Assembly: GCF_000372725.1 (NCBI RefSeq) | Contig: NW_005202427.1 | Location: 1,214,459-1,278,458, forward strand | DNA length: 64,000 bases | Direction: 5' to 3' | DNA from: Emiliania huxleyi CCMP1516 | Lineage: Eukaryota | Shown here: positions 1-57,342 of the stretch, piece by piece | Numbering within the stretch: the first letter of the stretch is position 1 | Layout of the letters: each line of letters starts with the position of its first letter | The notes under the pieces: model-generated | Told to the model about the DNA's origin: nothing | Databases searched by the model: none | The model's input: only the letters and a program-made list of their open reading frames with translations | Made by a program: the position numbers and the translations under genes

Positions 1-2736
1 GCGCTACTTCGGCTCCTTCGTGCAGCGTGTGCTCGACGAGCCGCTGGACGTTCGGCTGCACTACGGCCACCCCGCCCTGCTCGACAAGCTGCACTTCTTC
101 TGGGAACCGTCTTGGAACCTTCTTGGCACATTCTAGGCCACCCCGACCTGCTCGACAAGCTGCACTTCGCCACGCGCGGCGGGGTGAGCAAGGCGTCCAA
201 GGAGATCAACTTGAGCGAGGACATCTTTAGCGGGTACAAGACGGTGCTCGCCGGCGGCTGCGTCGTCTTTCGCGAGTACCACCTCGTGGGCAAGGGGCGG
301 CCCACAAACCTGATGGAGATCACCGGCTTCTTCGCGAAGCTCTCCTCCGGCTCCGCCGCGTCGCTCACGACGCGCGACGTGGCGCGCTTCGCCGCCAGCG
401 CGCCGCTCGTGAAGCTCTTCTCGTACTACTACTCGGCCATCGCCTTTTACGTGCACGACGTGATCGTGATGCACGTGACGGTGCCTCGCCCCGCGCCTGT
501 CCCTCGCCCCGTGCCCGCGCGCGCGAGGGATGGATGGCGAGCACCGCACTCCTCATTGCGGATGGCCGAGCAGGTCCTCATCCCCTACCTGCTCGCGATG
601 CTCGCGCTCGTCGGCCTCGATCACCGCTTCAACAACTACGAGGCGCAGCCCCTCTCGCTCTTCGCCCTGCTCCCGCTGCTGCTCTCGCTCATGACGGCCC
701 TCCCGCTCTTGCGTGTCTGTAACGACTGCCCATCCTCTTCATCACGTGCTTCCCCGTCGTAGGCCGTGCCCGCGCTCTGCATGGTGCTGGTTGAGAGAGG
801 GCCTCGCCGGGCCCTCTCCTTCTTGCTTGGGATGGCCATCACCGCCTCGCCCGTCTACTTCATCTTTGTCGCGCAGACAAAGTCCTTCCACTTTGCGCGC
901 ACCGTCACGGCGGGCGGCAGTTCATTAGCAGCTAATTCGTAGCTTATTTAGTAGCTGATTCGTAGCTTCGTAGTAGCTTATTAGTAGCTTATCAATCACC
1001 ACAGGCGGGCGGCGCGTCCTACTTCGCCGCGCGGCGGAACGCCTCAGTGCTTCACACGCCCTACCACGAGCTGCACGCGCGCTTTGCGCACTCGCACCTC
1101 TACGTCGCCGCCGACGTGTACGTCTTTCTCTGCATGGCGCACGTCTGGTCCGTCTCGGACCGGCTCTTCCTCACGACGTGGCCCACTTGGGCGGTGGCTT
1201 CGTGCTTCGTCCTCGCGCCGCTGCTGTACAACCCGCAGCAGCTCGAGGCGTGGCAGGTCAAGGCGGACGTGCGCGGCTTCTGCGGCTGGGTGACGGGCGG
1301 AGGCTGGGAGGAGTGGTACGCGCGGCTGCACGGGCCGCCCGCGCGCGGGGGCATGGCCGCCGAGGACGCGGCGTGGAACGAGCAGTTCGGACGCGTCTCT
1401 GTCGCGGCGTTTTACTCGTTCATCGCCTACCTCATCCCGCTCCAGACCAATGTCGACAACTTCGCCGCCACGCGGGGGTGGGTGTGCGAGCCGCGCCTCG
1501 TCTGCACGGGCGCAACCTACCTCGCCTCGCTCGTCGCCCTCGCCGCCGCCGACTTGCGCCCCCACCGCTCGGCGCGCGCGCCGTCGAGCCGCCGCCGCCG
1601 CGCCTGCTACGTCGCGGCCGCCACCCTCTGTGCGGCCGCCACCCTGCAGCTCGCGGCGGCGTGCGCCGTTTTGGGGCCGGCGAGCAGCGCCGCTGGAAAG
1701 GCCCTCTGCGCGCCCGACTGCCGTTTGCGGAGGCGCCTCGCTGGCCTGTAGGCCGGCCTCGCTCGCACCGCCTCGCTGCGCAAGCGGCTGTGCGTCGCCG
1801 CCCTGTGCGTCTACGCTTGCGCAGGCGCTGTCGGGTCGGTGCTGGAGACGTCCGCCAATGCGCCCTCTCTGTCTGAACCTCTTTTGAACCCTTCTCCGAG
1901 CCTTGGATAGGTGCTCGAGCTCGCTGCCAACATGCGGGCGACGGCGGACGTCGCCGCGCCGCTGCTGAGGCTCGCCCACAAGGCGCGCGAGAGCGTGGAG
2001 AGACACGCCCTCCCGCGGACACTTCCTACACACTTCATAAGACACGCCCTCCCGCGGACACTTCCTACACACTTCATAAGACACGCCCTCCCGCGGACAC
2101 TTCCTACACACTTCATAAGACACGCCCTCCCGCGGACACTTCCTACACACTTCATAAGACACGCCCTCCCGCGGACACTTCCTACACACTTCATAAGACA
2201 CGCCCTCCCGCGGACACTTCCTACACACTTCATAAGACACGCCCTCCCGCGGACACTTCCTACACACTTCATAAGACACGCCCTCCCGCGGACACTTCCT
2301 ACACACTTCATAAGACACGCCCTCCCGCGGACACTTCCTACACACTTCATAAGACACGCCCTCCCGCGGACACTTCCTACACACTTCATAAGACACGCCC
2401 TCCCGCGGCTGCTCCGCCTCGCCCAGCAAGGCCACCTATGTATATTTATATACCTGGCGCCTCAGGCGCGTGATTATGCCCTCGCCGCCGCGGTCCTGCT
2501 GCCGGTTGGCGCCCTCGCTGCGCTGCGGCTGCCGGGCGTGGTGCACCGGGCGCTCATCTTTCAGCGCTCGTTTGTCGACCTCGACATGCGCCGGCGCAGT
2601 AGTGTTTCCTGCCCCGGGCGCCCCCGCTTGTTTACCCTCCGTGCTCACTACGGGTAGGCACGGGCTCATCCTGTACTCCTCCGTCCTCGCTGCGGTCGCC
2701 CTCGCATACGCGCTCTCCTCGCTGGATTGGGGCTGA
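1..2736 (+). CDS. 1,3-beta-glucan/callose synthase (GT48, FKS-like), 5'-partial, multi-exon
   Basis: Spliced translation RLHYGHPDLLDKLHFATRGGVSKASKEINLSEDIFSGY...EYHLVGKGR...FFAKLSSG is the GT48 catalytic signature, followed by multiple TM segments. Inferred introns include 66-136, 910-1004, 1839-1910 and 1983-2465; stop at 2734-2736. Confidence 0.9.
2001..2408 (+). repeat. 39-bp tandem repeat (~10 copies) inside a glucan synthase intron
   Basis: Unit agacacgccctcccgcggacacttcctacacacttcata repeated essentially perfectly. It lies in the inferred GC-AG intron 1983-2465. Confidence 0.95.
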
Positions 2737-9115: not shown

Positions 9116-11416
9116 TCATCTCGCCTGCCCTTCATCCGTAAATGAAAAGGGCAAGTCCTCCTCCTCCTCCCCACCGCCCTCCGTCGCCGGAGCGCTCGCC
9201 CCCTCCATCAGCCGGCCCAGCTCCGCCTGCCACGCCTGCATCACATGGCCTGGCAGCGCGCCAGCAAGCATGCCTGCGTGCACAGCCGCGCCCAACGCCA
9301 CCGCCTCCATCGGCGCCACCGTCCTGCGCGGGTCGATGCCAAACAAGTTGGCGACCAGCTTGCGCACCGCCGCCATCTGCGTGGCACCCCCCACCAGGAC
9401 CACCTCCGCGAGCGGCTCCCCTCGCGGGAGGTAGGTTCGCTTGCCGCTCGGCAGGAGCGCCTACGCGGCGGGGGACCATCTTGACAATCCACCTGTGTCA
9501 CAACTGCAGGTGTGAAGAGACGCTGTTCACGCCTACGCGGCGGGGACCAGGCTCCCTCACGCCCCCCGCAGCCCCAGAGGGCCCAGCCCGCTCTGCCAGG
9601 GCACGCCTCCGCCGCGCGCCTCGCCTTCGCCGTCCGCTTCTTTGCTGGCGACGACGGCGCCGCCTGCGCGAGGGTTGCCTCGGACGTGCGACCCAAACGG
9701 AGGGCTCCGGCCACCCTCGCGCAAGCCGGGAGGGCGGGGGCATGCGCGCCTCCCCTGGCAGCGACACTGCGGCAGCGAGCGCAACCTCGTAAAGAGGCGC
9801 CTTGAGCCGCTGCAGCAGCGGCTCGCACGCAGCCTCCATCGCGTCGCGGGTCAGCTCGATCGAGGTGCCTTCGCCGCCCTCGCCGCCGCCCTCACGGTCG
9901 CCCGTCGCCGGCGACTGCGGCGACGGGAAGAGGACCGAGACGCGCTTGACGACCGAGAGCTTGCGCTTCGCCGCCTAGACCCGAGTATGATTGATGAATA
10001 TGTCATGTTTTTGGTGGTATTGTCACAGCTTGCGGCTTGGCCGCCTCGGCGCGCTCGCGCAGAGTGCGCAGCGCGGCCTCGTCGTGGTCGATGGCGGGGA
10101 GGGCGAGCCTCCGCCCCTGGGCCGCGAGGGGGGGGGGGGAGGGGGGGTTAGAGGGAGACGGAAGGCGGCGAGGGGGAGGACTGCGGCTGGGCCCGCGCTG
10201 CTCTGTCGTGCGCTGCTCTGTCGTGCGGAGCCGGCGGGAGAGTGCTCCCCGGCCCCGGTCCTCCTAGTGGTGGAAGAGAGGTCCTCGCCCCCGCAGGCCC
10301 CGCCCCGCCCCCGCAGGCCCCGCCCCGCCCCCGCAGGCCCCGGCAGCACCTCCGCGAGGAGGAGCGCGACGATGGCGGCGTCGAAGTCTGTCCCGCCGAG
10401 GAGCGGGTCCCCCGAGGTGGCGAGCACCTCGGGTTAGGGTTAGGGACAGGGTGAGGGGGAGGGGGAGGGACAGGGTGGGGGTTAGGCCGAGGAGCGGGTC
10501 CCCCGAGGTGGCGAGCACCTCGGGCGAGGCCGCCGAAGCGAGGCCAGGGGCGTGCTGTCAGGCGTGTGCAGCGGCCAGAGCGGCGGCGGTGCGGCGCGGA
10601 TGGGCGGCGGTGAGGCCCGGCCCAGGGCGTGTGGCGCACCTCGACGGCCTAGAAGGCTCCTAGAAGGCTCCTAGAAGGCTCCAGGGCGTGTGGCGCACCT
10701 CGACGGCGCCCTCGTCGCCGAGCCGCAGCACAGACACGTCGTAGGTTCCGGCGCCTAGAGGGCTCCTAGAAGGCTCCTAGAAGGCTCCGGCGCACAGACG
10801 CGTCGTAGGTTCCGGCGCCGAGGTCGAGGACGAGCACCTTGCCGACCGCCCCGCCGAGGCCGTAGGCGAGCGATGCGGCGACCGGCTCCGCGAGCAGCGA
10901 GACCGAGCCGAGCCCGGCGAGCCGGGCCGCTGCGAGCGTCGCCTGCCTCTGAGGCGCGTCGAAGTAGGCGGGCACGGTCACGACTGCGCGGCAGATCTCG
11001 CTCGCCGGGACGTCGAGCGCCCCGAGCAGCTCGGCCAGCACGCACGCGCCGGCCTCCTCCGGACTCAGATCGCCCACCGCAGGAAGCCGAAACATGGCGG
11101 CGCCCTCCTCGTCGCCGACCACCGTATACTGCGCACGTGCAATCTCGGCCTTGCACTGGCGCACGGTCCGCCCAATGAAGCGCTTGGCCGCCACCACCGT
11201 GTTGCGCACGTTCTGGCTGGCCTGAAGGTCGGCGGCCGCGCCCACCAGCACGGTGCCGTCGCCGGTGAAGGCGACGGTGGAAGGTGTCAGCGGCTCGCCG
11301 CGCGCGTTCGGGAGCAGCGACGGCTCGCCGCCTCGCAACAGCGCTATGGCCGAGTTGGTGGTGCCAAGGTCGATGCCGACGAGCAGGCCAGTGGCGAGGC
11401 AGGACGCGAGCAACAT
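9116..11416 (-). CDS. Hsp70-family protein, nucleotide-binding domain only, multi-exon
   Basis: GIDLGTTNS, TVPAYF, LAEPVAASLAYG, DLGAGTYDVSVL, ATSGDPLLGGTDFD, VLVGGATQM, EAVALGAAVHA; stop follows shortly after. Confidence 0.9.
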
Positions 11417-19873: not shown

Positions 19874-21298
19874 ATGTCCACCCCACCGCGCCGCCGCTCG
19901 CGCCGCCTCGCCCCCGCCGCCGCCGCCGCTCCCTCGCCAGACACGCCGCCGCCCGCCCGCCTCCTCGACCTCCCCACGGAGCTCCTCGTGCGCGCCATCT
20001 CTCGCTGCGACCCCGCCGACATCGCTCGCACCGCGGCCGTCTCGCTCCTCTTCCACGCCTCGCTTGCGGTGGAGGGCATCCGCTTGCGGGCGCAAGAGCG
20101 CGGCTACGAGCTTCCGGCGCCGCCAGAGGGCGAGGGCTGCGCCGTGCGGTGGCTGTTCTTCGCTGCGCTGCTGTGCGAGTCCAACCCGCCGGCGAGGGCG
20201 GCGGCAGGCGAACTCCACAGCGTTTTCATCGACGGCGAGGGGCGGCTCTCGTCGTGCGGCTCTGCGCCGGACTGGTATCCCGGACTGCTCGGTCACGGCG
20301 AGGGCGTGACGCGGCTGAACACGCCGACCCGCCTCCCGTCGATGCTGGGTGGCGAGCGCGCCGTGAGCGTGGCGGCAGGAGATTACCACAGCCTGGCCCT
20401 CACCAGCAGCAGTGTCTGGAGCTGGGGCTATGGTCTCTACGGCCGGCTGGGCCACGGCGACGAGGAGGAGCAGTGGCAGCCAAAGAAAGTCGAGGCCTTG
20501 ACTGGCCAGCGCGTCGTCGCCGTGTCGGCTGGAGGCGCGCACAGCCTTGCAATAACTGCCGACGGAGCTGTCCGGAGCTGGGGCCATGGAGGCAAAGGCC
20601 GGTTGGGCCACGGCGACGAGCAGAGCCAGCTGGAGCCCAAGAAGGTCGAGGCCTTTGCTGGCCAGCGCGTCGTCGCTGTGTCGGCTGGAAGCTTCCACAG
20701 CCTCGCCATCACCGCCGACGGCGCCGTTTGGAGCTGGGGCAGTGGAGACTGGGGCAAGCTGGGCCACGGCGACGAGCAGAACCGGCTCCTGCCGAAGAAG
20801 GTCAAGGCCTGGGCTGGCCAGCGCGTCGTCACTGTGTCGGCTGGAAGCTTCCACAGCCTCGCCATCACCGCCGACGGCAGCCTCTGGAGCTGGGGCCATG
20901 GACTCTCTGGCCAGCTGGGCCACGGCGACGAGCAGCAGCAGCTGCTGCCCAAGAAGATCGAGGCATTTGCTGGCCAGCGCGTCGTCGCTGTGTCGGCTGG
21001 AGGCCACCACAACCTCGCCATCACCGCCGATGGCGCCGTCTGGAGCTGGGGCTATGAAGGATGGGGCATGTTGGGCCACGGCGACGAGCAGCGCCAGCTG
21101 CTGCCGAAGAAGATCGAGGCCTTTGCCGGTCAGCGCGTTAACGCCGTGTCGGCTGGGCTGTACCACAGCTTCGCCATCACCGCCGACGGCGCTGTCTTTA
21201 CCTGGGGCATGGGCGTTCACGCCTGCCTTGCCCACGGAGAGGACCTGTCGAACCAGCTGCTGCCGAAGAAGGTGGAGGCGTGGGCGCCGGGGCAGTGA
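19874..21298 (+). CDS. F-box-like + RCC1 repeat protein, intronless
   Basis: LLDLPTELLVRAI (F-box-like) followed by ~6-7 RCC1 repeats (VSAGxxHSLAITADGAVWSWGxGxxGxLGHGD). Confidence 0.92.
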   Translation: MSTPPRRRSRRLAPAAAAAPSPDTPPPARLLDLPTELLVRAISRCDPADIARTAAVSLLFHASLAVEGIRLRAQERGYELPAPPEGEGCAVRWLFFAALLCESNPPARAAAGELHSVFIDGEGRLSSCGSAPDWYPGLLGHGEGVTRLNTPTRLPSMLGGERAVSVAAGDYHSLALTSSSVWSWGYGLYGRLGHGDEEEQWQPKKVEALTGQRVVAVSAGGAHSLAITADGAVRSWGHGGKGRLGHGDEQSQLEPKKVEAFAGQRVVAVSAGSFHSLAITADGAVWSWGSGDWGKLGHGDEQNRLLPKKVKAWAGQRVVTVSAGSFHSLAITADGSLWSWGHGLSGQLGHGDEQQQLLPKKIEAFAGQRVVAVSAGGHHNLAITADGAVWSWGYEGWGMLGHGDEQRQLLPKKIEAFAGQRVNAVSAGLYHSFAITADGAVFTWGMGVHACLAHGEDLSNQLLPKKVEAWAPGQ

Positions 21299-21464
21299 TG
21301 CAAGGGCGCAGGGGTTTCTTCTTTCCACTCCCGTGTGAAGGCCGTTTTCTTTTCTCAGCCTCTCTGTTTGCCCTGTGCCCGGGCGAGTAGAGGCACTCGC
21401 ACGCACTCTCGAGGTGCACCACTCTCGAGGTCTCTTCATGGTAGGGGTGCCCTGCTCCGGGCAC

Positions 21465-22877: not shown

Positions 22878-25800
22878 CTACTCCCGCTCCCACTCGTCCT
22901 TGTTCTCGGCCCCCCACGAGAAGCGCATCATCTTCATCTCCTCCTCGAGCTCGGTGGCCCAGTCGCCTTTGCCCGTCGCGCGCGCGTGGTTGAAGTTGCG
23001 GTGCATGTCGACGATCTTGCGCGCCTCCGGCGACAAGTCCATGTACCGCCCCTGGTACGGCTCGTCGTCGCAGACCTGCGGCGCAGCGCACGAGTGGCGG
23101 CGCAGCGCAGTAGTGGCCCCTGGCGCGAGCCTCGTCTGTGCATCTCGCGCGGGCGGGGAGGGCGGCGCGCGCCTGCTTGATGGCGAGGGCGGGCGAGAGC
23201 TTCTCCTCGGACGGGAAGAGCCGCGAGAAGACCGGGCCGCCTGAGGAAGGTTCCGAGAAGGTTCCGAGAGGGTTCCGAGCAGGTTCCCGAAGGTTCCGAG
23301 AAGAGCGGGCCGCCCGTCTCCTTGGGCAGCATCACGTGCACCTCGCCCGGCTCGTATGTCCACGTCGCCTGCCACACAAGCCGAGCCCCGGTGACGCTCT
23401 CCTGGCGCGGGCGGGCGAGGTGCGGGGCTGTGTCCACGCGCCTCGCCAGCCACCACAGGCTTGTCGAGCGAGCCTGAGAGGGGGGGGGAGGGAGGTCGAA
23501 GGCCTGCGCCGTGAGCCGACGCGAGGGAGGGCGGCGCGGCGAGGGAGGGCGGTGCGGTGGCGAGGCGAGCAAGCCTGCGAGGAGGACGTGTCCAATAGAC
23601 TACTCAATAGACTTCTCACTAGCAAGCCTGCGAGGAGGACGTGTCCGCGCGCCACCATCCGCAGCAGCAGCGGCTTGATCTCGACGCGGATGTCTCTCCG
23701 CGCCATGTCGGGCGGGATGCGCACGAGCAAGTTGATCTCCTGCGGGGCAAGGTCGGAGGGGTGAGGGGTGGCGGCGCGGGGTCGGCGAGCGGCTGCGGCG
23801 GCTTCCTCGTCCGTCTGCGACCACGAGTAGGTCGTGTTTGCCTCGAGCGGAACCTCCGCCTTGCGCAGAGGGAGCAGAGGGAGCAGGGGGAAGGGGGGGG
23901 GGGGGGGGGGAGCAAGTCGGCTGTGGGGCGGGGTGGCCTTGCGCCCGTGCCCCGACCCTCTCGGGCCCGCTAGTCCCACGGCTCGCGCTTCTCTGCTGCT
24001 CGAGCGCAACCTTGATCAGCGCTCCGCCGCCGCCGCCGCGAGAGGGAGGCTTTGCGGCCGGCTCCGCCCGCCGCTGCAGCATGTCTCTCCGCTGCAGCAT
24101 GCCGTTGCCAGGCGCTCCGCCCGGCGAGGGCTGCGGAGGCGGCTTGCGCGTGATCGGCGCCGCCTGGGTCGCACCCGCGGCGGGAGTGGCGCGGGGGTCG
24201 GGGCGAGGCGCGTGCGGAGGCGGGGCGGCAGGACGACGGCTCGCTGCCTCTGGGCTTTGGGGGGGCGAGAGAGGGGGGAGGGGAGAGGTGTGTGAGGGGG
24301 GAGAGCGTGCGATGCCTTTGGGCTGACGAGGGCCAGCTCGTGGTGCGGGAAGGGTTAGGGTTAGGGTTAGGGTCAGGGTTAGTGCCTTTGGGCTGACGAG
24401 GACCAGCTCGTGGTGCGGGAAGGGTTAGGGTTAGGGTTAGGGTCAGGGTCAGGGTTAGTGCCTTTGGGCTGACGAGGACCAACTCGTGGTGCGGGAAGGG
24501 TGAGGGTTAGGGTTAGGGTTAGGGTCAGGGTTAGTGCCTTTGGGCTGACGAGGACCAGCTCGTGGTGCGGGAAGGGTTAGGGTTAGGGTTAGGGTCAGGG
24601 TCAGGGTTAGTGCCTTTGGGCTGACGAGGACCAGCTCGTGGTGCGGGAAGGGTTAGGGTTAGGGTTAGGGTCAGGGTCAGGGTTAGTGCCTTTGGGCTGA
24701 CGAGGACCAGCTCGTGGTGCGGGAAGGGTTAGGGTTAGGGTCAGGGTTAGGGTCAGGGTCAGGGTTAGTGCCTTTGGGCTGACGAGGACCAGCTCGTGGT
24801 GCGGGAAGGGTTAGGGTTAGGGTTAGGGTCAGGGTCAGGGTTAGTGCCTTTGGGCTGACGAGGACCAGCTCGTGGTGCGGGAAGGGTTAGGGTTAGGGTT
24901 AGGGTCAGGGTCAGGGTTAGTGCCTTTGGGCTGACGAGGACCAGCTCGTGGTGCGGGAAGGGTTAGGGTTAGGGTCAGGGTCAGGGTCAGGGTTAGTGCC
25001 TTTGGGCTGACGAGGACCAGCTCGTGGTGCGGGAAGGGTTAGGGATAGGGTTAGGGTCAGGGTCAGGGTTAGTGCCTTTGGGCTGACGAGGACCAGCTCG
25101 TGGTGCGGGAAGGGTTAGGGATAGGGTTAGGGTTAGGGTCAGGGTTAGTGCCTTTGGGCTGACGAGGACCAGCTCGTGGTGCGGGAAGGGTTAGGGTTAG
25201 GGTTAGGGTCAGGGTCAGGGTTAGTGCCTTTGGGCTGACGAGGACCAGCTCGTGGTGCGGGAAGGGTTAGGGTTAGGGTTAGGGTCAGGGTCAGGGTTAG
25301 TGCCTTTGGGCTGACGAGGACCAGCTCGTGGTGCGGGAAAGTGCGCCGGTGCTCCGGGCCGTAGTAGCCTACGAGAGACAGCCGCAAGCTCACACGGCGC
25401 CCCTCCCTCGCAAGCGGCGAGCCCCGTGGCGGTATGCGGCGCCGCCGCGGTGGCAACGCACGCACAAGTCGAAGGCGCTGTCGCCGACGCCGCAGTCGAC
25501 GCAGTGGTAGAAGCGGCGGACCTGTTAATATTAATATTAATGTTAATATTAATATTAATCGACGCAGTGGTAGAAGCGGCGGACCTGTTAATATTAATAT
25601 TAATATTAATGTTAATATTAATATTAGTCGACGCAGTGGTAGAAGCGGCGGACCTGTTAATATTAATATTAATATTAATGTTAATATTAATATTAATCGA
25701 CGCAGTGGTAGAAGCGGCGGACCTGTTAATATTAATATTAATATTAATGTTAATATTAATATTAATCGACGCAGTGGTAGAAGCGGCGGACCTGTTCGCG

Positions 25801-27167
25801 GCACGGCGCGTGAAGAGGCGCTGCTCACGGCCGTGGGAGGGGCCGCAGCCGAGGAGGCACAGTGGAGGCGCAGCCGTCGCAGCTGGCTTGGGAGCCCGGC
25901 AGAGGGTACTCTCGCTCCTCGCCTGATCAGGTCAAGAGTGGAGTGCTGATGAAGCAGGCACGGCACTCGGTCTCCTCTCGCCAGCGGCTCGGTGAGGCCG
26001 AGGAGACGGGCTTGGCGGTGGGGCGGTGGTGGGGTGGAGCAGCGGTCGGGAGTGGAGTGGCGGTCGGGAGTGGAGTGGCGAGCGGGTTGGGTTAGGGATA
26101 GGGTTCGGGTTAGTGGAGTGGCGAGCGGGTTGGGTTAGGGATAGGGTTAGGGTGAGTGGAGTGGCGAGCGGGTTGGGTGGCGGGGCGAGGCTGCGCCTGG
26201 GTCAGAGCCCTACTAACCCCTCCTAACCCTAACCCTAACCCTAGAGGCTGGCCTGGGTCAGAGCCTCCGTCGCTGGAGGAGCTCGACGATGCGTCCGAGG
26301 CAACGCGCCTACAGGGCGGTTCCAACAAGGTTCCAAGAAGGTTCCAAGAAGGTTCCAGGAAGATGCGTCCGAGGCAACGCGCCCCTTGTACGCGGGCACG
26401 GGCTTCCGCCTCCGCCTCCGAGGCCCCTCCGAGCCCTCCGCCCGGGCGCCGTCCACACGCGGCCCCGCCGCTGCTGCCGCTGCTGCTGTTGCTGTTGCTG
26501 CTGCTGCCGGCGGTTGCTCCTCCTTCGTGGGTCGCGGGGTGAGCCGCACGGCTGGTCGCCAGGAGCTGCGTGCCGGCACGGCCACGCCGTTCGAGAAGCC
26601 GTCGCCATTCTCCCCTCCCACCGCCGCTCGCCCCGATAGGCGGCTCTCTGCGAGGCGGCTCTCTGCGAGGCGGCTCTCTGCAGGTGCGACTCGAGCGACT
26701 CGCGTGCCGCCGTCCACCGCCTGCCGTCGCCAAGCCTGCCGTGCGCGCGCCGCCGAAAAGGCACCGCGCCCAGCCGAGGAGTCCGGCACCGCATCAGCCT
26801 GCGCACCATCGTGCTCGGGCAGTGCACAGACAGGAGCATTCTCGCCCGCGAGAGACTCCTGCAGGTGCTGCCTACGGCCGTCGCCGCAAAAGAGAGAGCT
26901 CCAGCCAGCGACCTTCTCCTTGAAGAGGACGAGTCGCAGCTCCGTGGATTCCGCGCCGCTCTCCGGTACGTACAGCGTGTAGGCGCGTGTGCGGCGCGGC
27001 ACGACGGGCGCAAACAGCCGGCGGCGAAGCAGGACGCCCGAGCCTGCGAGCTCGAGTGTCAGGCGGCGGCGGGAGAGGACGACCTTGAGCTGGCTGTGGG
27101 CGGTGCCGGTTGGCACGACGATGCCGCACGTTGCAGTCGCGTTGTCCTGCCTCCACGTGTACGCCAT
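22878..27167 (-). CDS. CS-domain / ZZ zinc finger / CS-domain (NudC-like co-chaperone) protein, many exons
   Basis: MAYTWRQD...LRLVLFKEKVAGWSSLF (CS); SCDGCAST|VRRFYHCVDCG...FDLCVRCH (ZZ); YSWSQTDE|EINLLVRIPPDMARRDIRVEIK...TWTYEPGEVHVMLPKE (CS). Joining these into one gene is inferred from the splice pattern. Confidence 0.7.
24312..25340. repeat. 14-copy array of a ~40-bp exon end separated by TTAGGG/TCAGGG hexamers (period 70-82, mostly 76 bp)
   Basis: tgcctttgggctgacgaggaccagctcgtggtgcgggaa counted 14 times. Linkers are 5-7 telomere-type hexamers. Confidence 0.97.
25496..25796. repeat. 5-copy array of a ~30-bp acceptor/exon start separated by (ATTAAT)n
   Basis: cgacgcagtggtagaagcggcggacctgtt at ~25498, 25561, 25630, 25699 and 25768; period 63-69 bp. 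Confidence 0.97.
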
Positions 27168-38215: not shown

Positions 38216-38549
38216 GCTGGGGGACAGGGAGGGGTGGGCCTGTCCTCCTAGGGAGGGGGAACCTTAGCAATACAGAACAATTAGAGAGATAAGATGACGT
38301 CGGGGGCAAGGAGGGAGCTCCCGCAGGATGTAGTTTAGGGTGGTTGGAGTATGAGGGGGGGGGGCAGATTTGGGCGATGGTCTTCAATTGATTGCCTCGT
38401 TCATGCGGGCGCGAGAAGTGCAGACAGGGTTACCAGGTGAGAGAGAATGGCGGGGGGGGGCGGAGGCGAGGCAGCGCGAGCCGCGGCGGCGCGAGCCGCG
38501 GCGGCGCGGGCGGCGGCGGCGCGGGCGGCGGCGAGGGCGGCGTCGCACC

Positions 38550-40287
38550 GGTCCGGTTGTCGCACTCGAGCGCGTGGACGGGGCCGATGCGCGCGGCCTA
38601 ATTAAATCGTAATTAATGAGAGAGTATTTAATTAAGGACGGGGCCGGGGCGCGCGGCCTCAGCGTGGATCTCCTCGACCGCCTTCGAGCGGTCCGCCTCG
38701 CCGGAGGAGCCCGCGCCTAGAAGGTTCCTAGAAGGTTCCTGGAGCTTCCTAGAAGGTTCCTCGCCTCGCCGGAGGAGCCCGCGCCCTCCGTCTCCATCGG
38801 CGTTGGCTCGGCCGGCTTGGCGGCGAGCGCCGCGGCGCCGGCTAGGGTGTGCTCTCCAGTGTCGGCCGGCGCGGCGGCGGCGGCGGCCTTGTCGGCGGCA
38901 ACCTTGTCGGCGGAAGCCTTGTCCGCTGCAGCCTTGTCGCGCGCCTCTTCGAGCCTGTTGTTGTGCGACGCGATGTTTGCCTGCAGCTCTTTTGTGCACA
39001 GGTTCCGCACGTCGAGCACGTCGGGGAAGGAGATCGGGCGGAGGATCTTCGCGCGCTTCTCGGTATCCTTGCGGTACTGGAAGCGCACAAAGTTGACGGC
39101 GAGGTAGGGCGGGAGGCGGGCGATCTGCTCCGTCTTGTCGAAGAGCGCCTCGCGGCCGAGCGCGGCCGAGTGCTTCTCGATCGACTCGGAGAGGGACGCC
39201 TCGACCGCCGTGTAGAGGTGCGCCTGCCCGCGGCAGAGGGTGGTGAGGGAGGAGGCGCTTCGCAGCCGCGGCCCGGCGGCAGGCGCGCCGTCTTCTCGTT
39301 GATGTGGCACTTGAGGACCGTGTCCTTCTCGCGCTTCTCGTACGGCTCCTCGCCACCCGCCTCGGCGCACGCGTACCTCGTCACCTTCTCGACGCCTACG
39401 GGACGCGTCGCGGACATGTCACGCGCGCCCCCAGACACGTCGACCGCTGCCACCTCTCGTCGCCAAAGAGCGCGTCGCCGAGGTTGTCGCGCAGCTCCTG
39501 CTGGTGCGGCAGCAGCGGCGGCGAGGCGTTGTCGAGGTCGGACGGCGCGCCGCCTAGAAGGTTCCTAGAAGGCTCCTAGAAGGCTCCTAGAATGTCCCTG
39601 GAGGTCGGACGGCCCGGCGCCGTCGGGCAGCTTGAGCCGCTGCGCGAGCACATTCGTGACGAGCGTGGACCAGCACTCCTGCGCGTCCTGCTGCACAAAG
39701 CCGCGCCCGCCCTCGGCCTGCTGGGCGAACATCGGGAAGTTCTGCCGAAAGACCGACACGAACTTGAACGGGCGCACCTCCTGCGTCGCGTTGGACCGCT
39801 CGAGCTCGCCGACCAGCTCACGCATCGCAAACAGCAGCGCCTTCTCAGACTCGCCGCCGGTGCCGGCGTACTTTTGCAGCGCGAGCGATACCTCGGGGAT
39901 GCGGATCATCACCTGCAGCGACGAGTTGAGGTAGCAAGTGTTGCCGAGGTTCGTCAGCCCGCCCGGGTTCTTGGACGCGGTGAGCGCGGCGACGTCGACC
40001 GCGGGCATGTCCTCCACGAAGATCGTCTTCTCGGCGGGCGCCTCGGGCACCGCCTCGGCCGAACCCATGAGCATCAGCACCTGGCCCTGCTTGACGCCCA
40101 GCGCCTCCCAGTCCGCGCCGTCCTTGACGGTGCCTCCCTTGACGCCCATGATCTTTTGCCGCTCGACCGGCACGTTGGTGAGCGCGAATAGCTGCGCCTT
40201 GAAGAGGTCGACTGGCGCCGACTTGTCCAGCTCGACGGCCTCGAACTTCTTCTTGCCCCACTTGACGGTGACGTTGATTGTGGACAT
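38550..40287 (-). CDS. USP14: ubiquitin carboxyl-terminal hydrolase 14/Ubp6 (UBL + peptidase C19), 3' end not visible
   Basis: VTVKWGKKKF...FKAQLFALTNVPVERQKIM...MLMGS (UBL); GLTNLGNTCYLNS (Cys box); QQDAQECW; RLPPYLAVNFVRF...KAKILRPISFP.LDV. His box not found before the N gap. Confidence 0.92.
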
Positions 40288-41406: not shown

Positions 41407-44400
41407 ATGACTGCGGCCCTGTTCGCTCTCCTCCTCCTTCCAGCGCTCAACGACGACGCTGACCCTCGCACCCTCGTCCGCTGGGCCTCGTCGCGCTGCG
41501 AGCCGGCCGTAAGCGGCTCGTGCGGCCGCGAGCCGCACGGCTACTGCGACGCGTCGGTCGGCCGGTGCGTCTGCTCGCCCGGCCGCTTCGGTCCGCGGTG
41601 CGAGCAGATGCACTACCCGGCCTGCCGGCTGCACCCCGACGGCGAGATGGCGTGCGACACCTTTGTCGGCCTCATGTCCTGCGCGTGCCGCCTCTCGTGC
41701 GAGCAGAGGTACGGCTCGATGGCGCGGTTCAACACGCCTCTCTGCTGGGACGAGTCCGTGTCGGACGAGGAGCTCAGCCGCCGGTCGCTGCAAGCCGACG
41801 GCGGCCGCTCTCCAGCGACCCTCCGCACCCACACACTCCCCACCCTCCCCGACGCAAGCGGCCGCGCCTCGCTATCCCAGGCGCCCTCACCGCCCTCTCG
41901 CTGGTCAACACGTCCGACTTCCCGGCGGCGAGCGCGAGCATCGTCTTCCGCACCGACCAGTGGCCGCTGCGCGGCCGCTGCGCGCGGAAGAACATCGCGC
42001 CTGCCAAGCTCGCCGCCTGCACCTCGCGCACGGCCGTTGGCCACAACAAGGCGACGAGGCAGCGAGGAGAGGGGGGGGCGCCTCCGCTCTCCCCGCGGAC
42101 GCCGCCCGTCGCCGCGCCTCAGGCGAGGAACATGCTCGGCGGCGACCCCGTCCCCAACTGGCGCTGCCCCGGCTCCTGCTCCCACCGCGGCACGTGCCTC
42201 GTCCCCGCCGCCTAGACACTTCTGGGGCCTTCTAGGAACCGTCCAGGAACCTTCTAGGCACGTGCCTCGTCCCCGCCGCCTAGACACTTCTGGGGCCTTC
42301 TAGGAACCGTCCAGGAACCTTCTAGGCACGTGCCTCGTCCCCGCCGCCTAGACACTTCTGGGGCCTTCTAGGAACCGTCTAGGAACCTTCTAGGCACGTG
42401 CCTCGTCCCCGCCGCCGTCCGCTCGGAGCACGCGCGGGAGCAGTACCCGCTGCAGGGCGAGCGCGCCGGCGAGGCCCTGCCCCCGCCTCCGTGTGCGCGT
42501 GGGCGTGTGCCCTCACGCCTGCCGCACCGAGCAGGCGAGATTACCCGAGATTACCCGAGATTGCCCTCACGCCTGCCGCACCGAGCAGGCGAGCCGAGCT
42601 GCGTCTGCCACCGCGGGTATGTCGGCCGCGCCTGCGAGGCTGTCAGCCCGTCCGAGGAGCGCGTGCGCCTCGCGGCAACGCCGCCTGCCGACGCCGCGTC
42701 CGTGACGCGACCGTGAGTCGTGTCCACAGGAGCCGTTCGGCGCGTCGAAGTACGGCTCGCTCTGCCTCAACGGCCGAGGCTGCTCCGGCCACGGCGCGTG
42801 CGTCGCCCGCTTCTGCCTCTGCCACGCCGGTTGGGCGGGCGCAGACTGCTCGCTCCCAAACGCTCCGAGCCGGCCGCTGGCGCCGCCCGCCGCCCTGCCG
42901 AGCGCGCAGCCGATTGGCGGGCGGCGCGTGCCCATCTACATCTACCCGCTGCCGACCGAGATGTCGCTCGAGCACGTCTACATGCGCGACATGCTGCGGC
43001 GAGGCCAGTACTACGCCAACCTCATGTTCCTCGAGGTGACGCGTCCTCCTGCCCAACCTCCTGCCCAACTCGCCATCGCATGTCNNNNNNNNNNNNNNNN
43101 NNNNNNNNNNNNNNNNNNNNNNNNNNNNNNNNNNNNNNNNNNNNNNNNNNNNNNNNNNNNNNNNNNNNNNNNNNNNNNNNNNNNCCCCCAGTCCCTCCCC
43201 CAGTCCCTCCGCCAGCCCCTCCGCCAGTCCCTCCGCCGCGGAGCGGGCGGTGCCGCGCCCACACCCAACCGCCCGCCCCGCAGGCGCTGCTCCGCGACAA
43301 GGCCTCCGTCGTGGCAGACCCGGAGCAGGCGCGAGGCCGGCCTCGGCCCAGCGCCCGCCCGCTGCTCGCCCAGGCCGGCAGCTGCCTCGCCCGCAGGCGG
43401 CCCTCTTCTTCGTGCCGGTGATGCCGATGCAGATGGCGGGCAACTTGTGGCACCCATACGAGTTCCTCGCGCAGACCGCGCGCCACCTCGCGAGCGAGTA
43501 TCCCTTCTGGCGCCGCTCCGGCGGGCGAGCGACCAGCCCTTCCTCGCACGCCGAGTGAGGAGGGGATCAACAACTCACGGCATGTCAATCCATTGGTAGT
43601 CGCGACCACATCTTCTTCCTCACGACGGACCGCGCCGGCTGCTGGAAGCCATTCGAGCTCAACCAGTCCATTGTGCTCACCTACCTCGGCTTCTCTGCGC
43701 CGGAGGCCAACTCTGGCTGCGAGGAGCGGCTGGCTAACCCTCGCCCCGACCCTGGCCCTGACCCTGACCCCTAGGCCAACTTTGGCTTCGAGGAGCGGCT
43801 GCGCTGGGGCGCAAACCCGTCGGGGCCGGAGCGGCGCAACAACGCGTACGACACGCGCGAGGGGTCGGTCGCCACCACGCTGCCCTGCTACGTGCCTGGC
43901 CAGGACATCGTCGCTAGCCCCACCCCTGAGCCATAGCCCATACCCAAAACCCTAACCCGAACCCTAACCCTGACCCTGACCCTGACCCTGACCCTGACCC
44001 TGACCCTGACCCTGACCCTGACCCTGACCCTGCTACTTGCCTGGCCAGGACGTCGTCGTGCCCGTCGACACCGAGGTGAAGGCCGCCGACCAGGCAAAGT
44101 CGCCGCGGCCGGGCGCTCCGTACCAGTGCGCGGGCCGGGCGGGCAAGCTGAAGCTGCTGCACATGGGCGGCTCGATGCAGAACATGGGGCGGATCGAGTA
44201 CTCGCAGGGCGTGCGGCAGCGCATCGCCGAGCTGCACAGCGACGAGCCAGACTTCGTGCTCGGCGGCACCTTCACGCTGGACGACCTGCGCGCCGCCACC
44301 TTTTGCCTCGCGCCGTCGGGCTGGGGCTGGGGCTGGCGCATCACGCTCACCCTGCTGACGCAGTGTGTGCCCGTCATCATCCAGCCGAACGTGACGCAGC

Positions 44401-47552: not shown

Positions 47553-49990
47553 ATGGCCGACGCCGAGGCCGACAAGCGCGCAGAGGCCGAGATTGAAATC
47601 TGGAAGGTCAAGAAGCTCGTCAAGAACCTCGAGGCGGCACGCGGGTGCGCAGCGCCGACGCCCTGCCGCGATAGCCTGGGCGGGATGCACTGCGCCGCGT
47701 GGCGAGGAGGAGACCGGGCGGCCACGGATCAGCTCCGCCCTCACCGGGCCTCGCTCGCAGGAACGGCACGTCGATGATCTCGCTGATTCTGCCGCCGGGC
47801 AGCCAGATCTCTCAGGCGTCCAAGATGCTTGCCGAGGAGTACGGCACGGCGTCCAACATCAAGTCGCGCGTGAATCGCCTCTCCGTCCTCTCGGCCATCA
47901 CCTCGACCCAGCAGCGGCTCAAGCTCTTCTCCAAGGTTCCTCCGAACGGTCTCGTCATCTACTGCGGCACGATCCTGACCGACGAAAACAAGGAGCGGAA
48001 GGTCAACATCGACTTCGAGCCCTTCAAGCCGATCAACACGTCCCTGTACCTGTGCGACAACAAGTTCCACACCGAGGCGCTGCAGGAGCTCCTCATGTCG
48101 GACGACAAGTTCGGGTTCATCATCATGGACGGTCCGGCCCCGACACCGCTCCCTCCGCCTGACACACGGCCTCACACACAACCTCACACACCACCGCCGC
48201 AACGCCGCCCCGCGACGGCGCCGCCCCGCCCGCCGCCCTTGACCGCTCCTCGTCCGGTGCCCGAGCGGGCGGACGCCGCCGCCAGCCCACCCCCTCGCCC
48301 CTCTGCCGGCAGGTAACGGCTGCTTGTACGGCACTCTGGCGGGCAACCACCGAGAGGTGATCCACAAGTTCTCGGTCGACCTGCCGAAGAAGCACGGCCG
48401 CGGCGGCCAGTCGGCGCTGCGCTTCGCGCGGCTGCGGCTCGAGAAGCGTCAAAACTACGTGACCAAGTGCGCCGAGATGGCGACGCAGATGTTCATCACC
48501 AACGACAAGTGCAACGTGTCTGGGCTGGTGCTGGCCGGCTCGGCAGACTTCAAGGTGGTGCTCTCCGAGTCGGACAAGTTCGACCAGCGGCTCGCGGCAA
48601 AGGCAGCCCGCGCCCTCCCCACCCTCCCCACCCTCCCCTACCTCCCCACCCTCCCCGCCCTCACCACCACTCCCAANNNNNNNNNNNNNNNNNNNNNNNN
48701 NNNNNNNNNNNNNNNNNNNNNNNNNNNNNNNNNNNNNNNNNNNNNNNNNNNNNNNNNNNNNNNNNNNNNNNNNNNNCGCCTCCCCCGGCCCGCGCCACCT
48801 GTCGGCCCGCCTCCCTCTGCCGCCTCCCTCTACCGCCTCCCTCTGCCGCCTCCCTCTGCCGCCTCCCTCTGCCGCCTACCTCTGCCGCCTCCCTCTGCCG
48901 CCTCCCTCTGCCGCCTCCCTCTGCCGCCTCCCTCTGCCGCCTACCTCTGCCGCCTCCCTCTGCCGCCTCCCTCTGCCGCGAAGGTGCTCAAGACGGTGGA
49001 CGTGTCGTACGGCGGAGAGAACGGCTTCAACCAGGCGCGAGCTGGGCAGTCGCGAGGTAGTCGAGGGGTGAGGAGGCACTCCCTACAGAGAGGGCACAGG
49101 CGGGTTGAGTTCCCAGCCGTGCGCAGATAGCCGTGCAGACGGGGGGCGGCGCGGTCGCGGCATGCTGCCGCGGTGAGGCGTTCCTTCGTTTGTGCGGGCA
49201 GGCGATTGAGCTGTCGGCCGAGACGCTGGGCAACGTCAAGTTCGTGCAGGAGAAGAAGCTCATCTCGCAGTACTTTGAGCAGATCTCGCAGGACACGGGC
49301 AAGTTTTGCTTTGGGATCGACGACACGCTCAAGGGGCTCGAGATGGGCGCCGTGCAGATCCTCATCGTGTGGGAGAACCTTCAGGAAGGCCAGGAACCTT
49401 CTAGGAACCTTCTAGGCGCCGTGCAGATCCTCATCGTGTGGGAGAACCTGGCGACCTTGCGGTACACGCTCAAGGACGCAAACAGTGGCGCGCGGCGGCC
49501 TCGCGCCCCTCCCCCCGCAAGCCGCGCGCCCGTCACCCCGCCGCCGCCGCTCGCGTGCAGGGGAGGAGGAGGTGAGGCACATGTCGCCCGAGCAGGAGGC
49601 CGACAAGTCCAACTTCGTCTCCAAGGCACCGCCCGCTCGGTGCCCTCCCGCCCGCCACACCTCGCTCTGACGGGCCGCCTAGCATTCGCCGCGCAGGAGG
49701 GCGCCGACCTCGAGGTGGTCGACAAGGTGCAGCTGGTCGAGTGGTTCGCGTCCAACTACAAAAACTTTGGCGCGACGCTCGAGTTTGTGACAAACCGCTC
49801 GCAAGAGGGCGCGCCGCCCGCCGCCGCCCTGCGCCGCCCCTCTCCAGCGCGGGGGGCGCGGCCTGACGCAGCCCTCTCCCGCCCCGCGACAGGCTCGCAG
49901 TTTGTCAAGGGGTTTGGCGGGGTGGGAGGCATCCTCCGGTACAAGGTCGATTTCATGGAGCACGACTACGACAACGACGACTCGGACTAG
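47553..49990 (+). CDS. ETF1: eukaryotic peptide chain release factor 1 (eRF1), 9 exons, gap in an intron
   Basis: [82 protein letters not shown]. Confidence 0.98.
48808..48978 (+). repeat. 13-bp tandem repeat (CGCCTCCCTCTGC)n in eRF1 intron
   Basis: ~13 copies directly before the acceptor at ~48983. Confidence 0.9.
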
Positions 49991-53520: not shown

Positions 53521-56500
53521 ATGTCCATCTCCAAGTCCTTTCGCTACCAGGCCGAGTCTAGCGGGCTGCACCCAGACAGGTCGCTCTGCCCCTATTGTGG
53601 AGCGCGAAAGCGAATGCACGTCTGCCGCTGGGCGTGGCCGAGCAGCCGAAACAGCAGCAGAGCCGTAATCAGTGCGGCATCGCCTGCAGCTGCCCAGGCA
53701 CACAGCGGCGGCAGCGTCCGCATCAACCTGTCCGAGCTTACGCCTGCTGTTCCCGAGGCTGCCGGCCATTCTCCGGTCGAGTCGGACTGGCTCAGCGACG
53801 GGCCTCGCGTTGGGGCTAGGGTGCTGCGGCGCCTCAAGGGCCACGGGCACGTCCATGCCGTGGTTCAGCTCTACCTGCCGGCGGGCGCGGATGACGAGCC
53901 CGCGCTTTGGCGCATCCGGCATGCGGACGGGGATGAAGAGGATCTGGTGCGCACACCCAGCCTCATCGCCGTCAGCACCGCCTCGTCGCTGCACCGCCCC
54001 TCGGGACCGCTATGCCTCACCCTCCCCTCGCCTCCGCTCGCACAGGAGGAGTACGAGCTGCTCGAGGCGCTGCAGCGCTTCGCCACCAGTCGTGCGGGCA
54101 GGGCCAGGGCGGCGGCGGAGGCGGCGGGTGGACACGCGCGGGTGGCGGGGCAGGCGGAGACGTCAAGCTCGGGAGGGCCAGTGCGGGCGGCAGCGGCGGC
54201 AGGGGTTGCGGACGACGCGGAGGGAGAGACGGCGGAGGAGGCGGAGGCGGAGGCGGGCTCAGCAGGTTTTACCGCCTCGCCGCCGCCTCCGCCGCCTCCG
54301 CCGCACAGGGAGGCTGCACCCGCCGCGCCGCTCGTGACAGAGGCGGAGGGGCTACGCTTGCACCTCTCCAGCAGCAGCAGCACCGGGTACAAGGGCGTGC
54401 GCGCGGACAGGAGCCGCTTCAAGGCGCAGCGCAGGGTGGGTGGAAGGCTGCTCTCCATCGGCACCTTCAACACGGCGGTGGAGGCGGCGGTGGCGTGGGC
54501 GCGTGCGGTCGGCGAGTACCAGCCTCCGACGGTGGCGACGGAGGCGGACGGGCTGCGGCTGCACCTCTCGAGCAGCAGCAACGCCGGCTACAGGTGCGTG
54601 TTCCAGCACGCCTCTGGCCGCAGGAGCCGCTTCCAGGCGCAGCACAAGGTGAACGGACGAAAGGTCTCCCTCGGCTACTTCGACACGGCGGTGGAGGCGG
54701 CGGTGGCGTACGCGCGGGCGGTCGGGCAGACGGAGGCGGCAGGCGCGGCGGAGGAGGGCGACGAAGTAGGCGGCGAGGAGGAGGGCGGCGAGGAGGGCGG
54801 GTGGAGCGGTGGCGGCGAGGAGGAGAGCCACTTCCAGGTGGGAGGCCGCGTCGCTGTACAGTACTCTGACGGCGCCTTGTACCCGGGCGAGATCGTGGGC
54901 TTTGACGGTGCGTCGAGCCTGTACTCGGTGCGGTGCGACGACGGCGAGTTGCTGGAGGACGTCTCGCTGCACGAGATGCTGCGAGAGGTGGGAGAGGGCG
55001 AGTGGGAGGAGCAGGAGCGAGCGAGCGGGGAGGGGATGGAGGTGGAGGAGGCGGAGGCGGCAGCGGGCTCAGCAGGGCCTCCGCCGCACAGGGAGGCTGC
55101 ACCCGCCGCGCCGCTCGTGACAGAGGCGGAGGGACTGCAGCTGCACCTCTCGAGCAGCACCAGCACCGGCTACAGTGGCGTGCGCGCGGACAGGAGCCGC
55201 TTCAAGGCGCAGCGCAGGGTGGGTGGAAGGATGGTCTACTTGGGCTCCTTCGCCACGGCGGTGGAGGCGGCGGTGGCGTACGCGCGGGCGGGCGGCGAGT
55301 ACCAGCCTCCGGCTCCTCCGACGGTGGCGACAGAGGCGGAGGGGCTGCGGCTGCACCTCTCGAGCAGCAGCAGCACCGGCTACAAGAACGTGGGCAAGCT
55401 ACCCTCTGGCCGCTACCAGGTGCAGCACAAGGTGGGCGGAAGGCAGGTCTACTTGGGCTCCTTCGCCACGGCGGTGGAGGCGGCGGTGGCGTACGCGCGG
55501 GCGAAGGCGGGAAAGGCGAGAGGGCCAGAGCGGGCCGCGGAGGAGGCAGGGTCGGCGGAGGGCGCGGAGGCGGAGGGGATGGAGGTGGAGCAGGCGGAGG
55601 AAGCGGAGGCGGAGGGCTCAGCAGGCGGGGAGAAGGGAGAGAGGGCGGAGGAGGCGGAGGCGGGCTCAGCAGGTTTTACCGCCTCGCCGCCGCCTCCGCC
55701 GCCTCCGCCGCACAGGGAGGCTGCACCCGCCGCGCCGCTCGTGACAGAGGCGGAGGGACTGCAGCTGCACCTCTCGAGCAGCACCAGCACCGGGTACAGT
55801 GGCGTGCGCGCGGACAGGAGCCGCTTCAAGGCGCAGCGCAGGGTGGGTGGAAGGATGGTCTACTTGGGCTCCTTCGCCACGGCGGTGGAGGCGGCGGTGG
55901 CGTACGCGCGGGCGGTCGGGCAGGCGGAGGCGGCAGGCGCGGCGGCGGTGCCGGCGGAGGAGGGCGACGAAGTAGGCGGCGAGGAGGAGGGCGGCGAGGA
56001 GGAGGAAGAGGCTGTGGAGGCCAGGGAGATGGAGGCGATGGAGGCAGAGGAGGCGGAGGAGGCAGCGGCGGCGGCGGCGGAGGAGGAGGAGGGCGCAGAG
56101 GGGGCGCCGGAGGAGGAAGAGGCGGCGGAGGCCGCAGGCACGGCGGCCGTTTCCGCCGCCGCGCCGCTCGTGACAGAGGCGGAGGGGCTGCGTCTGCACC
56201 TCTCCAGCAGCAACGCCACCGGCTACAAGGGCGTGTACGAGCACTCTGGCCGCTTCAAGGCGCAGCGCAGGGTGGGTGGAAGGCTGGGCTCCATCGGCAA
56301 GTTCGACACGGCGGTGGAGGCGGCGGTGGCGTACGCGCGTGCGGTCGGCGAGTACCAGCCTCCGGCTCCTCCGACGGTGGCGACTGAGGCGGAGGGGCTG
56401 CGTCTGCACCTCTCTAGCAGCGGCGGCACCGGCTACAAAGGAGTAGCGCGGCGCCCCTCTGGCCGCTTCTCGGCGCAGCACTGGGTGGACGGAAGGCTGG

Positions 56501-57342
56501 TAGGCCTCGGCTACTTCGACACGGCGGTGGAGGCGGCGGTGGCGTACGCGCGGGCGGTCGGGCAGGCGGAGGCGGCAGGCGCGGGAGGGCCAGCGCGGGC
56601 AGCAGCGGCGGCGGGGGAGGCGGAGGCGGGGGAGACGGAGGAGGAAGAGGCTGTGGAGGCCAGGGAGATGGAGGCGATGGAGGCAGAGTAGGCGGAGGAG
56701 GCAGCGGCGGCGGCGGAGGAGGAGGATGTGCCGCCGCAGGCCGAGGGGTTGCGTTTGCACCTCTCCGGCTGCACGGGCTCCGCTGGCCTGGCTGCCGGCT
56801 CTCCGTGCTGGGCCAAGCTACGCGGCTCGCCTTGGTGGCCTGCACTCATCAGCGCGGAGGAGGGCGAGTCGGTGCGGGTGCGCTTCTGCGGCACGGGCAA
56901 CGTGGCGACACTCGAGCGCGCGAGCTGCATCAAGTCGCTCCGCGAGGACGAGCGCCTCTTCGACGCCACGCGCTGGGGCAAGGACTTTGGGCGGCCAAAG
57001 TGGAAGCACCTTCGCGCGCCCTTTGCGAGTGCCGTCGCTCAGGCACTCGAGGTCGAGGCGGCCCTCCCGCATGCGCCGCCGGGCGCGCTAAGCCGAGGAC
57101 CGGCCGGAAGCTCCGCAGACAACGCGAGGCGGTGCGACGAGCGGCCGCCCAAGCGTCGTCGCACCTCGGCTGCGCAGGAGGCGGTGCAGATGGTGGCAGA
57201 CCTGGAGACGGCGGACGCGGAGCTCGACGCGCCGCCTGTGCGGAGGTGCGCCGTCACGCTCGACCGCTGCTTGCCCAGCAGCGCCAACCGCGGCGCGGCC
57301 CCTCCTCGCCTCGGCATCGGCGACGGGTGGGCCGCCTCGTAA
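53521..57342 (+). CDS. Tudor-like + 7x AP2-like DNA-binding repeats + PWWP chromatin protein; in-frame TAG at 56689-56691
   Basis: Repeat EAEGLRLHLSSSxxTGYKGV...RFKAQ...LGxFxTAVEAAVAYARA x7; Tudor-like FQVGGRVAVQYSDGALYPGEI...YSVRCDDGE; PWWP CWAKLRGSPWWPA...VRFCG. Intron ~53947-54045. Confidence 0.82.

Follow-up and report, generated by a model that had tools for sequence, protein, structure and literature searches.

A predicted GC-AG intron in the Emiliania huxleyi eRF1 gene and a class of probable new introns built from an exon duplication and a shared filler

The 64-kb stretch of Emiliania huxleyi DNA analyzed here (the window) contains a gene for eRF1, identified by the Pfam domains eRF1_1/2/3 and a PDB eRF1 match (E = 3e-210), and the transcript-derived protein P0127 is an exact fit to the window's exons (Table 1; a slash marks a splice junction throughout). 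Within the gene, positions 49347-49380 and 49416-49449 are identical over 34 nt, as a sequence-only reading of this DNA had claimed, and the spacer is as that reading wrote it; identity at a lag of 69 nt runs one base further left, so that the exact repeat measures 35 bp. The two copies of this exon piece, which we term an echo, are separated by a 34-bp filler of an 11-mer repeat. Copy 1 ends in GAACCT, in register with the 11-mer unit, and copy 2 begins with the G of the acceptor AG. The arrangement is not due to chance: block-shuffled windows yielded no echo-plus-filler match in either of two runs (2 shuffles and 3 shuffles).

Table 1. Coordinates of the eRF1 locus and of other echo loci; echo introns are predictions, and positions are those of the window unless a metagenome contig (L) is named
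Feature	Position	Strand	Remarks
eRF1 gene	47553..49990	+	hosts insert; 431-aa product by transcript P0127; exact P0127 mapping, Pfam, PDB
predicted echo intron, 69 nt	49347..49415	+	GC..AG, phase 1, in frame, stop-free
copy 1 of 35-bp exon piece	49346..49380	+	source of G/GC donor
filler of GGAACCTTCTA 11-mer family	49381..49415	+	ends CCTTCTAG, gives acceptor
copy 2 of 35-bp piece	49415..49449	+	coding copy after predicted splicing
alternative imprecise placement, 75 nt	49352..49426	+	GT..AG, in frame, deletes V-Q; matches public model P0131
echo intron, 71 nt	66..136	+	GC..AG, 11-mer filler, 1,3-beta-glucan synthase gene
echo intron, 59 nt	10649..10707	-	GC..AG, 11-mer filler
echo intron, 64 nt	10755..10818	-	GC..AG, 11-mer filler
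echo intron, 73 nt	23241..23313	-	GC..AG, 11-mer-variant filler
echo intron, 74 nt	26309..26382	-	GC..AG, 11-mer filler, putative coding context
echo intron, 68 nt	38717..38784	-	GC..AG, same insert in metagenome L015
echo intron, 67 nt	39554..39620	-	GC..AG, diverged echo
echo unit grown to three 68-nt copies, 204 nt	42190..42393	+	GC..AG, putative coding context
echo intron, 69 nt	43706..43774	+	GC..AG, telomere-like C-rich filler
telomere-repeat-filler echo unit, 13 copies	24313..25290	-	AG/GY inside echo on minus strand
AT-only-filler echo unit, 5 echo copies	25496..25796	-	AG/GY inside echo on minus strand
TCTTCACACCT-containing filler	9474-9529	-	
TCTTCACACCT-containing filler	L020:691-845		
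TCTTCACACCT-containing filler	L061:571-617		

Among 36 equivalent 69-nt removals in eRF1, only that of 49347-49415 starts with GC or GT and ends with AG (GCGCCG..TTCTAG). It leaves an 18-residue stretch identical to E. huxleyi eRF1 transcripts, although these one-copy transcripts may derive from empty alleles. Retention adds 23 aa and no stop, an in-frame insertion that the sequence-only reading had anticipated and that translation bears out. Public model P0131 lacks V-Q, as the 75-nt GT..AG call would give. The neighboring eRF1 introns also start with GC, and the available part of one study gives GC as the commoner donor in E. huxleyi, at 56-65% across several counts (PMC4028052). From its sequence the 69-nt insert is likely to be a newly gained GC-AG intron; because it is in frame and stop-free, its splicing is something that we infer.

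The genomic frame at 49109-49990 is open for 293 aa through four eRF1 introns. It is therefore reported as a protein by prokaryote-style gene callers, and ORFs called on unspliced DNA are therefore recognizable by their translated introns. With this frame as the query for such ORFs, a first search returned a cluster of seven, all (7/7) without the 23 aa, and a second a cluster of 13, of which six cross the eRF1 site (five empty, one filled). In total, 12 of the 13 distinct unspliced-DNA ORFs are empty and one is filled, a 12:1 ratio that refers to distinct sequences, not population frequencies, and to translated ORFs, not DNA. Each empty ORF could be a pre-mRNA that retains the neighboring introns but not the insert, and a short-k assembly might collapse the 35-bp repeat in "empty" contigs, although metagenome assemblies do keep such structures. 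One empty ORF, P0267, matches the read-through ORF of the window except that exactly the 23 aa are missing; it is the same haplotype with the insert absent. The filled ORF, P0273, reads MGAVQ, after which it continues in the +1 frame of the window, across copy 1 and filler, as far as its stop; it carries the insert in an independent contig, with a copy-1 frameshift that would truncate eRF1 unless spliced, or that is an assembly error. Related eRF1 proteins (P0003-P0007, P0133, and P0134), including one encoded on a 21.6-kb contig, read straight through the insert site. In the P0008 cluster (46 members), whose eRF1 is more distant, an unrelated intron sits a few bases further downstream, an independent gain near the echo site. 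P0130 was dropped as evidence for an empty allele: its single intact copy is uninformative, because a one-copy gene model may reflect a correct GC-AG splice. The eRF1 intron at 48603-48983 contains a 13-mer tandem array and a 100-N gap, and the public models P0130 and P0131 both lose frame across it.

Judged from these translations, the insert is polymorphic and most other eRF1 copies lack it. The proposal of a recent intron arising by exon duplication gains support from the 12 of 13 unspliced-DNA ORFs that have no intron; the site does not hold an intron of unrelated sequence in all strains and relatives, and a single copy is not its only state, since the insert is present in the independent contig of P0273. 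The sequence-only reading had also argued that zero divergence between the copies implies a very recent event. Recency stands, on the polymorphism and P0267, but not zero divergence as dating evidence: 35 bp of identity dates little by itself, because 44 of the 88 family members described below are also mismatch-free. The polymorphism and the same-haplotype empty allele are better evidence of recency than copy identity is.

We consider it improbable that the eRF1 insert goes unspliced or poorly spliced and that this allele persists with an in-frame duplication-insertion of 23 aa in domain 3. The open, stop-free frame would allow this, the donor TGG/GCGCCG is weak, and intron retention is common in E. 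huxleyi according to the available part of PMC4028052. However, no protein with a doubled eRF1 motif was present among the 279 fetched, the only independent filled ORF (P0273) is frameshifted in copy 1 and would be truncated if unspliced, and lengths divisible by three are not enriched across the family.

The GGAACCTTCTA family is represented in the window by 11 arrays at nine loci, and all nine (9/9) combine an exon echo with a G/GC..AG placement. In a codon model trained on ~2.2 kb, eRF1 included, post-removal frame continuity was best at 9/9 of these sites, the coding score was positive at 6/9, and the sense strand was preferred at 7/9. At the glucan synthase site (66-136), copy 1 has drifted to GHPA and copy 2 keeps the conserved GHPD, the D of which is present in 117/118 homologous motifs; the predicted intron copy is therefore the drifted one. 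Gene model P0283 lacks residues at this site, and an Isochrysis-type cluster reads straight through it. All three environmental ORFs (3/3) are filled there, with fillers that differ. This site and P0273, as a second filled variant of eRF1, are what could be said for an old filled state in the species, with empty alleles being precise losses by copy-copy recombination, a loss that a direct repeat eases. We regard such a history of the eRF1 site as highly improbable, since its empty alleles span several haplotypes, relatives have no intron there, and the two copies are identical; it would alter the age of the insert, not its origin by duplication.

Other echoes in the window have telomeric, AT-only, or other fillers. 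In the hand-picked non-11-mer cases, AG/GY lies inside the duplicated piece in 7/7, with filler still present; the echo at 43706 starts at AG/GY, and that at 15670 is without AG/GY. Three window echoes have expanded, to 13, 5, and 4 echo copies. Interstitial telomere-type repeats serve as fillers on either strand (24313-25290, 26069-26250, and 43733-44030). A second recurrent filler family, containing TCTTCACACCT, lies between echoes at unlinked loci. The window also contains a 156-bp coding repeat at 20381-21330, which we take to resemble RCC1 repeats, and a 210-bp repeated domain at 54300-56700, presumably AP2-like.

Metagenome and viral contigs were searched with a 24-nt array pattern, which matched 116 metagenome loci, mostly from two assemblies, and gave 0 matches in the viral contigs. 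From 134 arrays, 13 near a contig end were dropped (121 left), as were 22 duplicates, leaving 99 unique arrays. Measured against a mismatched-pair null, the echo exceeds the 99th percentile in 89/99, and 88/99 have gapless echoes of 15-48 bp (median 27), 44 of them with 0 mismatches and the others with up to 5. The total insert has a median of 68 nt and measures 60-80 nt in 75/88. A GY..AG placement exists for 66/88 gapless echoes (49 GC and 17 GT), compared with 19% for random lags; on the opposite strand a GY..AG-like rule holds in 22/88, a count without a null. The base after AG/G in copy 1 is C or T in 64/67, against a background of 60%. Insert lengths are even modulo 3 (27/30/31; n = 88). 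Echo and filler lengths are inversely related (rho -0.71, a value to which ambiguous boundaries contribute), and the standard deviation of total length is 7.8, compared with 12.7 were echo and filler independent (minimum 10.5 in 5000 permutations).

For codon modeling, the 66 GY..AG sites were reduced to 64 by removing one with length >100 and one with short flanks. The 11-mer repeat lies on the sense strand in 56/64, and the frame is continuous after removal in 56/64. Of 46 inserts whose length is not a multiple of three, 40 give a continuous frame only when removed and 4 only when retained. By these models the inserts lie within coding regions, and most of them would shift the frame if kept, a pattern in keeping with splicing. 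One contig, L015, matches window 38508-39239 at 98.8% and has the insert 38717-38784 base-for-base. An assembly or library artefact is hardly credible: the draft sequence of the window is interrupted by three 100-N gaps, including one in eRF1, but the filler is read at the eRF1 site in the independent contig of P0273, the L015 insert is identical, and 88 further metagenome-contig cases have splice signals on the coding strand.

Echoes with fillers other than the 11-mer numbered 48, or 39 after removal of nine with short flanks; GY..AG was found in 25/39, compared with 10.4 expected, and their lengths centered near 69. Non-periodic pyrimidine-rich fillers ending in a T-run and AG occur at L040:639-661, L072:584-627, and L056:618-654, and a GAGCCGCCGT stretch is common to two of these; in sequence, all three resemble intron 3' ends that have been copied. 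It is common for several echo introns to occur at spacings of no more than a few hundred bases (L002, L006, L013, L082, L095, and L097; window 10649-10818), which suggests clustering by gene. Contig L107, which is AT-rich and unlike the alga, has an 11-mer array between two long inverted arms at 205-445 and no direct echo, and L003 is likewise AT-rich and echo-less; the L107 arrangement may be chance or may be a clue to a source element.

The two ends of the filler differ. The exit is at TAG/G, with CCTTCTAG in 49/66 and recurring CTCCTAG-type variants, whereas the entry phase is spread over all 11 positions and 5' microhomology averages 2.0 nt versus 0.33 (n = 50). A test for a shared body beside the arrays, limited by short contigs and a one-pattern sample, found none among the 99 (two weak pairs, neither upstream-to-upstream). 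No sequence motif was seen at the far end of the duplication (n = 32). CpG was not enriched in the duplicated piece (P = 0.17, n = 62); nicks at methylated linkers, the idea behind that comparison, were discarded for lack of a CpG excess. RNA structure of one echo intron was no better than that of shuffles (z +1.07). The eRF1 filler has TC...CTAG ends, a Helitron-like feature; a Helitron-like reading was rejected because the fillers do not share a start and because so long a duplication is at odds with it.

On balance, we favor staggered-break repair with templated filler, followed by selection for spliceable events, as the origin of these inserts, whose duplication and shared filler, polymorphism, and splice signals on the coding strand are matters of observation. 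Two opposite-strand nicks 15-48 bp apart, or an equivalent broken fork, would be followed by overhang fill-in that duplicates the segment. One end would prime on an existing GGAACCTTCTA array via ~2 nt of microhomology, in any phase, and 2-5 array units would be copied before rejoining at the G of TAG/G. Where the segment starts with G/GY and the total is ~60-76 nt, copy 1 would provide the donor and the filler would provide pyrimidines and AG; splicing of such inserts would restore the mRNA exactly, and other exon events would be purged. Later, copy 1 would drift, filler units might be gained or lost, the unit could expand by unequal exchange, and copy-copy recombination could delete the intron precisely. 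Telomeric, AT-only, and pyrimidine-rich fillers would act likewise, often via AG/GY inside the duplicated piece. No donor array for the fillers was identified.

If repair were blind and selection acted afterwards, neutral copies that cannot be spliced should be numerous outside exons, and few are seen: a spliceable placement exists at 9/9 window loci and in the metagenome at 66/99 arrays gapless, with a gapped one in 15 of the other 33. A coding-DNA bias of assembled contigs may add to the scarcity, but the shortfall counts against this route. The fixed TAG/G exit and ragged entry are just as compatible with an RNA template whose 3' end is defined. Under an RNA-templated route, which we judge possible though rather unlikely, reverse transcriptase would prime at a nick on RNA whose 3' end is fixed at ...CUAG and copy 20-55 nt, with a second-strand nick giving the 15-48-bp duplication; the template might, for example, come from a spliced-out echo intron, as its 3' tail, or from a non-autonomous retroelement, as its repeat tail. 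If this were so, introns of the echo class would seed new ones. This target-primed route stays alive because copies without splice signals are few, the AG end is fixed, and the strand bias is strong (56/64 on the sense strand); the ragged 5' end with microhomology, the variable duplication length, and several non-repeat fillers that resemble intron 3' ends and recur at unlinked loci also agree with it. Against it, there is no longer body beside the arrays (two weak pairs among 99), no reverse transcriptase partner was seen in data short of a whole genome, and the far end of the duplication has no motif. Moreover, where a telomeric or AT-only filler lacks a terminal AG, an AG/GY inside the echo is used instead (7/7 by hand), which suggests that duplication is a general process whose products are sifted by selection.

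In its boldest form the RNA-templated route would be a self-seeding, transposase-free process, which we consider unlikely. The 3' tail of an excised intron, or a DNA copy of it, ending at AG would be copied into a staggered break near a cryptic exon G/GY. Such a process would be splice-aware and ongoing, would have made thousands of E. huxleyi introns, and would explain GC donors and short tandem repeats; if true, the donor half of the intron would derive from the duplicated exon and its acceptor half from the copied tail.

The eRF1 insert is real, recent, and polymorphic, and it belongs to a class of probable new introns that is abundant; the main point is this class and its shared filler rather than the single eRF1 intron. 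The origin of spliceosomal introns outside transposon bursts is a long-standing open question, with few cases whose origin can be read; in each echo intron it is readable, half being neighboring exon and half recognizable filler. Nine loci with one filler family and about as many others per 64 kb would amount to thousands genome-wide, by a rough extrapolation from one window. In this bloom-forming marine alga, which is culturable and abundant worldwide, alleles with and without the insert occur side by side, so that intron gain and precise intron loss, the selection of splice sites, and the minimal length of an intron become measurable in populations and mutation-accumulation lines. The class would help explain the majority of GC donors, as donors recruited from exon sequence of 65% GC. 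Echo introns are also a source of wrong gene models, as in P0131 without V-Q and P0283 at the glucan synthase site.

Known routes of intron gain were compared through the available parts of each source. Staggered breaks in Daphnia give intron-flanking repeats of 4-12 bp in 33 cases (PMC4202315), and Daphnia pulex neointrons have been attributed to staggered double-strand breaks (Li et al. 2009, via PMC3443670). The repeat-flanked insert in eRF1 and in 88/99 arrays resembles that type of gain, as do presence/absence polymorphism and absence in relatives, here at the protein level only. However, echo repeats are 15-48 bp instead of 4-12 bp, make up ~40% of the intron, and supply the donor, and in the echo class one filler family recurs in scores of genes that are not linked, always ending at a fixed 3' point and bringing the total to about 68 nt. 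In the Rogers model of tandem genomic duplication (PMC3443670), exon duplication likewise makes an intron and leaves the coding sequence unchanged, and the 7/7 hand-picked non-11-mer echoes use AG/GY inside the duplicated piece as in that model, yet hold filler. The eRF1 segment, by contrast, is without AG/GT(GC), and the only precise placement takes the AG of the filler; the foreign filler also lifts a 35-bp duplication to a spliceable length.

Introners (PMC9860276, PMC12130899) likewise comprise many sequence-sharing new introns in genes, with one splice site carried and the other recruited from duplicated target DNA, as in 66/88 cases here. The supplement of PMC9860276 lists five E. huxleyi Introner families with 653 elements, mean lengths of 70, 70, 37, 37, and 37 nt, and TSD/TIR entries of "?" or N; compared by table rows and not by sequences, these may overlap some of our fillers. 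The pipeline described there required similarity at both ends, and low-complexity families were removed by hand (PMC9860276). The 11-mer motif was not found in the part of that supplement available, and E. huxleyi is not named in the main text, as available, of the 2025 follow-up (PMC12130899). In contrast to the two-ended similarity of Introners, the 5' halves of echo introns are each host's own exon, with no shared body. The echo-intron listings show no terminal inverted repeat, the duplication is 15-48 bp and not 3-9 bp, and unit number varies.

Polymerase theta end joining makes templated insertions, with fillers usually copied from beside the break. Small tandem duplications also arise at breaks with 3' overhangs in cells (PMC8355091). 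The echo class resembles both in duplication size and microhomology-joined templated filler, but its filler comes from one repeat shared genome-wide, and the literature on these processes, in the portions covered, makes no link to intron birth. Target-primed insertions of the non-LTR type have a fixed 3' end, a ragged 5' end with microhomology, and a duplication of variable length, and in some copies a longer shared body of the element survives on the 5' side of the repeat tail. The echo family has the first three of these features, but a longer body was found in none of the 99 arrays. Insertion templated by telomerase at a break leaves the organism's telomere repeat as filler. The telomere is given as TTAGGG (10.1101/2024.05.26.595999, part available). 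The 11-mer is not this repeat, and telomere-type fillers occur at other window echoes. The E. huxleyi genome paper of Read et al. 2013 reportedly describes dense 10-11-bp tandem repeats in introns. No literature description of the echo-plus-filler anatomy was found in a search that had most subscription papers, including that one, outside its reach, and the available parts of PMC2784329, PMC4226036, PMC6142364, PMC8469720, and PMC11782384 hold nothing on the class. As far as these sources go, echo introns resemble staggered-break gains in their working, the Rogers model in their duplicated-exon logic, and TSD-borrowing Introners in their use of the donor; they differ from these routes in combining a long exon echo with a recurrent, fixed-end filler.
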